Below are positions 18,930 through 21,522 of a stretch of DNA of 22,019 bases, piece by piece (position 1 is the first letter of the stretch; every line of letters starts with the position of its first letter). Below the pieces are notes generated by a model. It had not been told where the DNA came from. It made no database searches and saw only the letters and a program-made list of their open reading frames with translations. Source of the stretch: Oscillatoriophycideae cyanobacterium NC_groundwater_1537_Pr4_S-0.65um_50_18 (lineage in GTDB: Bacteria > Cyanobacteriota > Cyanobacteriia > Elainellales > Elainellaceae); assembly GCA_016208305.1 (NCBI GenBank), contig JACQYI010000026.1:1-22019 (forward strand), written 5' to 3'. The position numbers and the translations under genes are program-made.

Positions 18930-18994
18930 CCGCCTCAAGCCAGTTTAGGAATGCTGATGGTCAGATGCTAGGCTACCGAGCAAAAGCTCTCTGC
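18930..18994. repeat. Left copy of a perfect 65-bp inverted repeat (partner at 21458-21522)
   Basis: ccgcctcaagccagtttaggaatgctgatggtcagatgctaggctaccgagcaaaagctctctgc is the exact reverse complement of 21458-21522. Confidence 0.9.
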
Positions 18995-19400
18995 TTCCAG
19001 AGCGTTAAGTCAGAGTTAGCCCTTTTTGGACAGAATCTTTACCAGCGATCGCGTGACACTTCATTGCAGCGTCGCTACCTTTACGCCTTAAAGCGGTGAG
19101 TGAGAGTTTTGGGGTGCGGAACTAACGCCTTCAAAATCGGCTGAAGGTCTTCTTTGGCAAAGCTTTAAGAGTGCAGAACTAAAATATTCCCAAAATGTTC
19201 GGCTAGAGTAGGCGAACAGCCTTGCTGCGATTGGGTTAATTTCGCTGGCGGGGCTGATAATCGAAGGCGATCGCTTCCCTAACCAGAGCGATCGCCTTTG
19301 CCATATTCAGCCTCAAGGGGGAGCTAATTCTCAAAAGAAGACCGCAAAACTGACACGATTAACCCTGGAAACCCCTTTGAGCTGCGTGACCACACTGAGG

Positions 19401-19462
19401 AAGGGGTTGAATTTAACTCAGCGGAGTGGTTGACTGCTCCGCTGAGTTAAATTCAACCTCTA
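19401..19462. other. Perfect 22-bp stem / 10-nt loop hairpin in the 5' region of the MVP-like gene
   Basis: ggttgaatttaactcagcggag-tggttgactg-ctccgctgagttaaattcaacc. There is no flanking U-tract. A HIP1-based 11-bp hairpin also occurs at 19262-19296. Confidence 0.6.
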
Positions 19463-19562
19463 TGAGATCGTTTCAGGCGTTAGGACGAAGCTGATGTGAT
19501 AAAAAGCACAAGAATTGGTGACGATGCTTCGTTCCATCGGCAAATTTTTCGTTCATCTTTGA

Positions 19563-21293
19563 ATGACTCCCAAGTCCGTCAAACCGGAAGAGACAAGCTT
19601 TATGCTTTTGCCCAGACTTTACTTTCTTAAAGCCGATGAGCAGCTTCTCATCGAAGACTTCACTCAACGGTTTCTCGTTAATGGTCCTACCTTCTTCTTT
19701 GCCAGACCGCTCTTAAAAATAACCCGTCGCAATGCCTCTACTCTAGGACCAACTGGCTATGCTCGAATTCGCAATCTCCTCACCGGCGAACTGCGCAACG
19801 AAAGGGGGCCAGGACTATATTTTTTGGGCGCGAACGAGGAGGTTGTCAAAAACTTGACAGCGATTCCCCTCAAACGCAACCAATATACGAAAATCATCGA
19901 TCAGCGTACGGCTGTTATTCGTATGGTGCGCGGCGAAACCCTCATCTATCTAGAGCCAAACGAGGAACTGTTAGGAACGATCGAAGAGGGGATTAACATT
20001 GATGATGACACTGCCGTCTTGGTACGTACTGTCGAAACCGGTCAATTGCAGCTCATCACAGACCGACAGGTTTTCTTTCCACAAGCCAATCAGAAGATTG
20101 AAGCTTTGTGGAAGCCAATTTTGCTCAAGCAAAATCAGTACGTCAAATTAATCGATAAAAGCACCGGTGCCGTCCGGGTGGTTCGAGGCGAATGCCGCTT
20201 TTACCGGGAACCAACGGAAGAACTGCTGGGCGACATTCAGGAGGGCGTGAATGTGGATGAACACACAGCAGTACTCATTCGCAATACAGAATCAGCGCAA
20301 CTTGAGTTGATCACCACACCCCAAGTGTTCATCCCAAGCGCGACACAAGAGGTTGTGCGCTTACGTCAGCGCATTCTGCTGGAAGATCATGAGGCCGTTG
20401 TGGTTAAAGACAAGCTTGGGCAGTACCAGATCCGGCGAGGCACCGATCCAGAACGTGCCTTCTTTCTGGAACCGTATGCGCAACTAGTCGAATTCTGCTG
20501 GTCAAGCGGTGTGCATAAAGCTAAGCGTAATCTGACGTTTACCCATCTTGATGTGCGTCCCAAGTTCATGTCTTATGAATTTGAGGTGCGCACGCAAGAC
20601 AATGTCGAGTTGGTGCTTGCCATCACCTTGTTCTGGCAGATTATGCATATTGAGGCCATGATCCGCACGACAGACGATGCGACCGGAGACGTTTGTTCGC
20701 ATGCCCGTAGCAGTATTATTCAGGCGGTTTCCCAGACAACACTAGAGCGCTTTTTGTCTAGCTTTAACGACCTTGTTCGAGAAGCTGTGCTGAATCCTAA
20801 TGATGCTTTTTACCAAACTAGAGGGGTACAAATCCACGCGACAGAAGTACGCTCTATTGCCTGTAAAGATCCCGAAACGCAGCGGATTCTGATGGAGATT
20901 ATTCAAGAGACGACGAATCGCCTCAACCAGCTTCAAAAGCAAGAGAGCAGTAATGAAGTTCAACTGAGACAACTGGAAGGCAATATTGCAGCAGAACAAC
21001 TGAAAGGACAGCTTTTGGTACTGCGGCAGGAACATGCTAAAACCGAGGCAACCACGCAGGGTGAAGCCGAAGCCATTCGAGTGAAAGCGTTTCTTGACGG
21101 GCTCGGTGAGCAGTTGTCGTCTGAAGACAAGCTTTTTCTGTTCAATCTGCTGCGGAAGCAGGATGCGATCGCGGCTCTCAGTACAGGGACGGCTCAGCTG
21201 TACTTTACGCCTGCGGACGTGAATTTGAGTATCGAAGCGCGGCCACTCTCTGGAGGAGTACCTCTTCAAGGAGTGGAGTCGGGATCAAGGTAA
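19563..21293 (+). CDS. Major vault protein (MVP) homologue: MVP repeats + shoulder (SPFH-like) domain + coiled-coil cap-helix
   Basis: The N-terminus MLLPRLYFLKADE resembles MVP IRIPPYHYIHVLD. There are two clear ~76-aa internal repeats (NQYTKIIDQRTAVIRMVRGETLIYLEPNEELLGTIEEGINIDDDTAVLVRT... and NQYVKLIDKSTGAVRVVRGECRFYREPTEELLGDIQEGVNVDEHTAVLIRN...) and an FFLEPYAQLVEF motif. The shoulder-like segment VELVLAITLFWQI...GDVCSHARSSIIQAVSQTTLERFLSSFNDLVREAV matches MVP ARLQLQLAYNWHF...[37 protein letters not shown]/E/L-rich coiled coil follows. The start is ATG 19563 or ATG 19602. Confidence 0.75.
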   Translation: MTPKSVKPEETSFMLLPRLYFLKADEQLLIEDFTQRFLVNGPTFFFARPLLKITRRNASTLGPTGYARIRNLLTGELRNERGPGLYFLGANEEVVKNLTAIPLKRNQYTKIIDQRTAVIRMVRGETLIYLEPNEELLGTIEEGINIDDDTAVLVRTVETGQLQLITDRQVFFPQANQKIEALWKPILLKQNQYVKLIDKSTGAVRVVRGECRFYREPTEELLGDIQEGVNVDEHTAVLIRNTESAQLELITTPQVFIPSATQEVVRLRQRILLEDHEAVVVKDKLGQYQIRRGTDPERAFFLEPYAQLVEFCWSSGVHKAKRNLTFTHLDVRPKFMSYEFEVRTQDNVELVLAITLFWQIMHIEAMIRTTDDATGDVCSHARSSIIQAVSQTTLERFLSSFNDLVREAVLNPNDAFYQTRGVQIHATEVRSIACKDPETQRILMEIIQETTNRLNQLQKQESSNEVQLRQLEGNIAAEQLKGQLLVLRQEHAKTEATTQGEAEAIRVKAFLDGLGEQLSSEDKLFLFNLLRKQDAIAALSTGTAQLYFTPADVNLSIEARPLSGGVPLQGVESGSR

Positions 21294-21457
21294 GAAGAGT
21301 CTAGATGACCGAGAAATCTTATCTTGTCTAAGTTTCAGCACAATAATCAGCAACTGCTCTCTGTCTTGCCCTTCTGCTGAGCAGGTGTACAGTGCCAAAT
21401 TAAATGACGTCGAGACAAATTCGTGTCGCTGGGCAAAACCTTCTCTGTTGCAGGATT

Positions 21458-21522
21458 GCAGAGAGCTTTTGCTCGGTAGCCTAGCATCTGACCATCAGCA
21501 TTCCTAAACTGGCTTGAGGCGG
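21458..21522. repeat. Right copy of the perfect 65-bp inverted repeat; it abuts and truncates an IS630 transposase pseudogene
   Basis: Exact reverse complement of 18930-18994. The minus-strand transposase reading frame (...VVIDNASFHKSALIRD) runs straight into the repeat and terminates inside it. Confidence 0.9.

Follow-up and report, generated by a model that had tools for sequence, protein, structure and literature searches.

The inverted repeat is the overlap of two truncated elements

Contig JACQYI010000026.1 of Oscillatoriophycideae cyanobacterium NC_groundwater_1537_Pr4_S-0.65um_50_18 was analysed as a single stretch of 22 019 nucleotides (hereafter the window), in which an MVP-like gene is enclosed by a perfect inverted repeat. 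We found this repeat to be the common middle of two copies, opposite in orientation and truncated differently, of a non-coding miniature element of 213 bp. Because the 66 bp of the repeat represent the overlap of two broken copies, the structure is a rearrangement scar, an ordinary one arising from small transposons and deletions, and not a mobile unit carrying the gene. The 66-mer is not a repeat unit, a terminal inverted repeat (TIR) or the end of a transposon; it has no function of its own and needs none. The features that make up the scar are the following.

18929 to 18994, plus strand: left repeat arm, the central 66 nt of the mini-element
21458 to 21523, minus strand: right repeat arm, the same central 66 nt of the mini-element
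18854 to 18994, minus strand: left truncated copy, element positions 1 to 141 in the layout of the Drouetiella element L016 (L016 10010–10150, 92.9%)
21386 to 21523, plus strand: right truncated copy, element positions 213 down to 76 (reverse of L016 10223–10085, 93.5%)

A repeat search of the window gave arms of 66 nt each, 100% complementary and separated by 2463 nt, one base longer than the 65 bp of the original prediction, which had been made from the sequence of the window. Tolerating three mismatches, a search of the window for the 65-mer still gave two sites and no more, and none of 100 shuffles contained it. Several features of the prediction were confirmed: the arms enclose only the MVP homologue and its 5' region (one real gene and ~570 nt upstream of it), the right arm adjoins an interrupted minus-strand IS630 frame whose fragment ends at the arm junction, and the outer left flank holds no continuation of IS630. 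The structure is also not a simple IS630 insertion, as had been proposed.

Each arm is preceded, approximately 30 nt to its left, by a sequence of 43 nt starting with TGTACAGTG (18854–18896 and 21386–21428). These two sequences are 77% alike and in direct orientation, whereas the arms are inverted. The left copy has retained a right-end-type terminus (TGTACAGTG at 18854) together with the centre and lacks the left-end side; the right copy, in the opposite orientation, has retained a left-end-type terminus (TGTACAGTG at 21386) and the centre and lacks the right-end side. The assignment of the ends follows copies of the element in other cyanobacteria: the right end of Nostoc copies (CGACAAATAAAAAGTCACTGTACA), when reverse-complemented, is identical to the first 24 nt of the left copy, from 18854, and the end of the right copy is ~90% identical to unannotated left-end sequences on Nostoc plasmids. 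A relation between template and variable repeats, as in diversity-generating retroelements, was considered for the 43-nt direct repeats beside the four-helix-bundle gene to the left of the scar and was rejected, as they are two different ends of one element.

The element was reconstructed by joining 18854–18994 to the reverse complement of 21386–21457, giving 213 nt. As a test of the join, the frame open across the reconstruction was translated and searched against a protein collection, resulting in a single match, to a spurious open reading frame (ORF) of 44 amino acids on a scaffold of a Drouetiella hepatica metagenome-assembled genome. The reconstruction matched one contiguous D. hepatica element (L016 10010–10222) at 93.9% over all 213 nt and without gaps. 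In this layout the left copy (1–141) and the right copy (76–213) overlap by exactly 66 nt.

The possibility that the 65-mer is a dispersed genomic repeat, raised in the original prediction, did not hold: a 24-mer from the repeat had no exact match in the genome and metagenome collections searched. A 23-mer common to the repeat and the Drouetiella copy matched only the Drouetiella genome (one copy) and one contig of Candidatus Sumerlaeota. The 66-mer is neither a common dispersed repeat nor bound to MVP genes, and the broader family defined by the element ends is widespread. The Sumerlaeota contig (L019 1470–1492) has an exact 23-nt match to the repeat centre between dissimilar flanks; the match was taken as chance because there is no similarity past those 23 nt.

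A family of miniature elements in cyanobacteria

The element is 213 bp long in the reconstruction and in Drouetiella and ~199 bp long in Nostoc, and its only ORF is the spurious one of 44 amino acids, which has no Pfam match. Its TIRs are imperfect (43 nt at 72% in L016; 48 nt at 77% in the Nostoc plasmid L013), and its predicted fold is far stronger than that of shuffled sequences (z = −5.2). Complete elements of ~199 bp, bounded by TGTACAGTG...CACTGTACA, were identified in three Nostoc plasmids (L013 5001–5199, L011 and L012), and matches to the element were found in 14 Nostoc plasmids in varied, unrelated intergenic contexts. The ~199-bp element or solo ends occur approximately once per plasmid (L003, L004, L011–L014 and L021–L024, from Nostoc and Crinalium). 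In Drouetiella the single copy is located beside a CheB/CheR kinase gene, and the same terminus that stands at 18854 in the window abuts the stop codon of that large gene.

Based on these sequence features, namely its small size, absence of coding capacity, imperfect TIRs, strong predicted fold and unrelated intergenic contexts, the 213-bp element is classified as a miniature inverted-repeat transposable element (MITE). It resembles bacterial MITEs in being ~200 bp long and non-coding, in its imperfect TIRs and strong predicted fold, and in its intergenic location in several genomes. Cyanobacterial MITE families include the IS630-related Nezha. Its ends, in contrast, are neither IS630-like nor IS-like but Tn7-like (TGT...ACA, with two site-like repeats of ~20 nt per end), and no clear target-site duplication was seen. 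An origin of the repeat that is MITE-like, or by recombination between dispersed repeats, had been among the explanations first suggested; the MITE-like origin and the rearrangement were both retained, whereas the 66-mer is the overlap of truncated copies and not itself a dispersed unit. The family occurs in Leptolyngbya-like cyanobacteria and Drouetiella as well as on many Nostoc plasmids, and as a by-product of the analysis is more interesting than the scar.

The ends resemble those of type V-K CRISPR-associated transposons

The termini of the element, 5'-TGTACAGTG...CACTGTACA-3', are of the TGT...ACA type. For comparison, primers and a probe for ShCAST, the type V-K CRISPR-associated transposon (CAST) of Scytonema hofmannii, contain the end sequences TGTACAGTGACAAAT and TGTACAGTGACTAAT and the left end CTGTCGTCGGTGACAGATTAATGTCATTGTGAC (PMC9527255). 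The termini in the window were identical to the terminal 15-mers of ShCAST at 12–14 of the 15 nt. When the joined pieces of the ShCAST left end were aligned with gaps, the two element ends were the top two matches in the window, with scores of 35 and 29 against a maximum of 25 in 20 shuffles. Two predicted site-like units of ~20 nt in each end align by sequence with the sites of the ShCAST left end; a simple consensus scan for binding-site repeats did not rise above chance. As in ShCAST, the ends start with a terminal TGTACAGTGAC(A/T)AAT followed by ..TGTCGT.GG.GACAGATTA.TGTC.., but unlike in ShCAST they lie within 213 bp of each other, and the space between them holds no tnsB, tnsC, tniQ, cas12k or CRISPR array. 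No tnsB, tnsC or tniQ gene was found in the window, and no description of a Tn7-like or Cas12k-associated MITE was found in the literature searched.

At the level of sequence, then, the ends are similar to those of Tn7-like and CAST elements, from which we infer that the family may be mobilised by Tn7-like or CAST machinery. The interest of this by-product lies in a conserved, non-autonomous element of ~200 bp with type V-K CAST-like ends. If CAST or Tn7-like machinery mobilises such elements, they would be natural minimal donors defining the sequence required in each end, and could serve as markers of past CAST activity. They would also give rise to inverted repeats, which make cyanobacterial genomes unstable and interrupt short-read assemblies.

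The MVP-like gene is a bystander

Between the repeat arms lie two features.

18995 to 19562, plus strand: MVP upstream region, not conserved in other MVP loci before 19487, with a hairpin of 25-bp stem at 19402–19461
19563 to 21293, plus strand: MVP-like/SPFH gene, encoding 576 amino acids (Pfam MVP_shoulder, Band_7 and weak Vault_3)

The predicted protein has 619 homologues at E ≤ 1e-5, in Cyanobacteria, Chloroflexota and other bacteria. Its closest orthologues (82–87% protein identity) were found in Leptolyngbya sp. BL-A-14 and on four Logan contigs, where the neighbouring genes are unrelated and the loci contain no such repeats or elements. MVP loci with 72–88% nucleotide identity share only positions 19487–21271 with the window, and their flanks are not homologous. 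Both TGTACAGTG termini in the window (18854 and 21386) read rightwards, and no CACTGTACA terminus was found anywhere in it. A transposable unit needs both a TGT... and an ...ACA boundary; since no element terminus closes the right side, the MVP gene is a bystander and not cargo. This is close to what the original prediction had named as evidence against a special role of the repeat, in that the parent element stands beside unrelated genes elsewhere and the closest MVP orthologues lack the repeats; the 65-mer, however, is not the common repeat that had been envisaged. Reading the structure as a scar removes the tempting but mistaken view that a vault-protein gene has a mobile or invertible cassette to itself, and otherwise has little import.

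The hairpin at 19402–19461, just upstream of 19487, has a stem of 25 bp that is 96% complementary and not followed by a T-run, and is not a typical terminator. The idea that other MVP contigs of ~2.4 kb also break at element ends was dropped, as such contigs do not end in element sequence.

IS630 remains at the right flank

To the right of the scar, the window contains parts of two IS630-family transposase genes.

21524 to 21882, minus strand: IS630-family transposase fragment, residues ~115–234 of ~294, with one in-frame stop (Pfam DDE_3; tblastn E = 1.6e-39)
21944 to 22019, plus strand: start of a second IS630 transposase gene (tblastn match to residues 1–24)

A frameshift-corrected transposase of Leptolyngbya boryana (~294 amino acids) was used as the reference in tblastn. 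The C-terminal part missing from the fragment, which breaks off at the right arm, was detected nowhere else in the window. The second IS630 element interrupts the first at ~21893, resulting in nested IS630 debris from 21524 to 22019. The first IS630 is a dead fragment, being incomplete, interrupted and carrying an in-frame stop. A minus-strand 'NPIA...' motif at 19000–19300 was considered as a degenerate IS630 C-terminus inside the segment, which would imply an inversion through IS630; tblastn found nothing there.

A second haplotype and the history of the locus

The exact MVP protein was found on two Logan contigs of the SRA series of SRR12113402; the series also holds the HypE protein of the window, and the population represented by the window is present in it. 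Logan contig L001 (SRR12113402) matches window positions 18993–21412 at 100% identity. Leftwards of 18993 there follow 12 nt (CTATCTTAAGGG) and, beyond them, 29 nt that match the left-end terminus in reverse complement without a mismatch; the left junction of L001 thus differs from that of the window, precisely at the inner edge of the left arm. With an inverted left end 12 nt from 18993, this other sample holds a left end where the window has a deletion junction. The copies are recent, as had been predicted: the arms are identical, and the inverted left end in L001 likewise shares 29 nt with the right copy without a mismatch.

We consider it probable that two inverted MITE copies were each truncated by deletion, leaving a repeat without function and an MVP gene that was never carried. 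According to this scheme, two identical copies of the element would have inserted to the left and right of the MVP segment, inverted relative to each other, before each lost one side by illegitimate deletion. On the left, the simplest relation to L001 would be an ancestor with a complete reversed element, from which a deletion of 86 bp at a 2-bp GC microhomology could have removed the 72-nt left-end arm and 14 nt of flank. The left breakpoint falls in the loop of a predicted hairpin inside the element, which spans the boundary of the centre and the left arm and whose 5' arm coincides with the final ~17 nt of the 66-mer. On the right, the right-end arm and the 3' part of the neighbouring IS630 would have been lost together in another deletion.

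A number of points weigh against this scheme and against the nature assigned to the element. Contig L001 stops inside the left-end repeat, so that the completeness of the left copy and its adjacency to the four-helix-bundle gene lie beyond its reach, and the right-hand deletion was deduced from the window alone, without an intact version for comparison. The two partial copies sum to exactly one complete element and one extra centre, an outcome that a single event predicts and that two deletions merely allow. Copies in the source organism were counted within the window only, where there are two, both partial. In the flanks of L016, L011, L012 and L013 no clean 5-bp direct repeat or target-site duplication was seen. 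Genes for tnsB, tnsC and tniQ were absent within 3–9 kb of the ten plasmid copies inspected, and no autonomous partner was identified there; as no tns genes lie beside these copies, what links the family to Tn7-like machinery is the similarity of its ends.

The exact sum of the parts would be accounted for if a single complete element beside the four-helix-bundle gene had been split in one event. The MVP segment would at first have been oriented the other way, next to an already truncated IS630; it would then have been flipped by an inversion in which one breakpoint was staggered (by 66 nt) or replication switched template at internal hairpins of the element, which would have left a second, inverted copy of the 66 nt and two complementary halves of the element. 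Right-end and left-end arms are each represented exactly once in the window and the centre twice; the flanks of each arm, one native and the other foreign, follow the pattern predicted by such an event, and both ends of the 66-mer lie in or beside small predicted hairpins of the element. A staggered-break model of inverted duplications at breakpoints has been described for Drosophila inversions, where a short inverted duplicate likewise stands at the ends of the segment, each with one native and one foreign flank; to our knowledge it has not been established in bacteria for events of this scale. A single event cannot, however, yield the second inverted left-end terminus that lies 12 nt from 18993 in L001, a haplotype that argues for two original element copies, and it needs a prior, unexplained junction of the MVP upstream region to mid-IS630. 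We regard it as improbable. An assembly artefact, in which a metagenome-derived contig was mis-joined through repeated element sequence, would agree with the finding of the organism only in fragmentary short-read assemblies of one SRA series and with the different left junction in another sample. Yet the odd junctions share merely 1–2 nt with the intact element or the alternative flank, and a mis-join through the repeat would leave the elements complete and give them wrong flanks; it would not truncate them. Since a k-mer graph cannot join overlaps of 1–2 nt, the reads must contain the junctions, which makes an artefact very unlikely.

Two further explanations had been offered by the original prediction, and neither was sustained. 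Movement of the MVP gene as the cargo of a 2.6-kb composite, MITE-flanked or foldback transposon might be suggested by the identity of the repeats, by their derivation from a mobile element and by the different neighbourhoods of the MVP gene in related cyanobacteria. Composite transposons of comparable design include the MITE-flanked class 1 integrons of Acinetobacter, and, as with such MITE or IS pairs bracketing a gene, there is one small mobile-element copy on each side of the MVP gene. In contrast to composite transposons, the window has two truncated copies whose termini fail to bracket the gene and which could therefore not move as one unit: the arms lie inside the element and are not its termini, the surviving termini read the same way without an opposite terminus in the window, and those in L001 face the gene from outside. 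Together with the MVP loci that lack the element and are homologous to the window only within 19487–21271, this makes a cargo unit scarcely credible. There is also little reason to believe in a programmed or often-used invertible segment by which the MVP gene is switched between orientations. Sixty-six identical inverted bp suffice as a RecA substrate for homologous recombination, but the repeats are accidental remnants, no invertase or recombinase domain was found by Pfam in any window ORF scanned, and no promoter logic is evident at the segment. At most, rare homologous inversion of the 2.46-kb segment through the 66 bp is possible; it would recreate a complete element at the left.

Returning to two inverted MITE copies, a more speculative extension can be considered, which we put forward as unlikely but worth stating. 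The element could belong to an apparently undescribed MITE family that parasitises the RNA-guided type V-K CAST or Tn7-like machinery of cyanobacteria, which lacks TnsA and is replicative, and the identical inverted pair, 2.4 kb apart, could have been left by a replicative transposition within one molecule, which would have inverted the MVP segment. If so, this would be a natural case of CAST-type machinery rearranging its host chromosome through a hitch-hiking mini-element.

Neighbouring genes

On the left, the scar adjoins a further gene.

18420 to 18863, plus strand: four-helix-bundle (23S_rRNA_IVP) ORF (Pfam), with its last codons (V, Q) and stop codon derived from the element terminus

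Since the element terminus provides the end of this reading frame (two codons and the stop), the element was inserted at the extreme 3' end of the 23S_rRNA_IVP gene. A gene encoding a Ro60 protein with TROVE and vWA domains (Rsr-like) is located at 16691–18277 on the minus strand, 1.3 kb from the MVP-like gene, and homologues of two eukaryotic ribonucleoprotein proteins are thereby adjacent. The closest MVP orthologues have no Ro60 neighbour, and the adjacency looks accidental. The Ro60 gene had led us to consider whether the repeat or the 5' region of the MVP gene contains a structured RNA (a Y RNA, a vault RNA or a tRNA-like molecule). This candidate was rejected: Rfam gave no matches to these sequences at gathering thresholds, with only chance matches of microRNA type at E-values up to 10, and ARAGORN detected nothing tRNA-like in them.

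Exact look-ups of the Ro60, four-helix-bundle and IS630-fragment ORFs in other assemblies returned none on record. Between 18218 and 18518, heptamer blocks (AATTCGG/AGTTCGG) in direct and inverted orientation form long hairpins that reach the annotated 5' end of the Ro60 gene, the real start of which is probably at an internal MFKADIW. Further to the left, the chromosomal context at 280–6299 and 10976–11251 of the window comprises a hydrogenase maturation cluster, recognised from Pfam matches to HypA, HypF, HypC, HypD and a HypE-like AIR-synthase protein, together with an IS1 InsA ORF and a BMC-domain gene.

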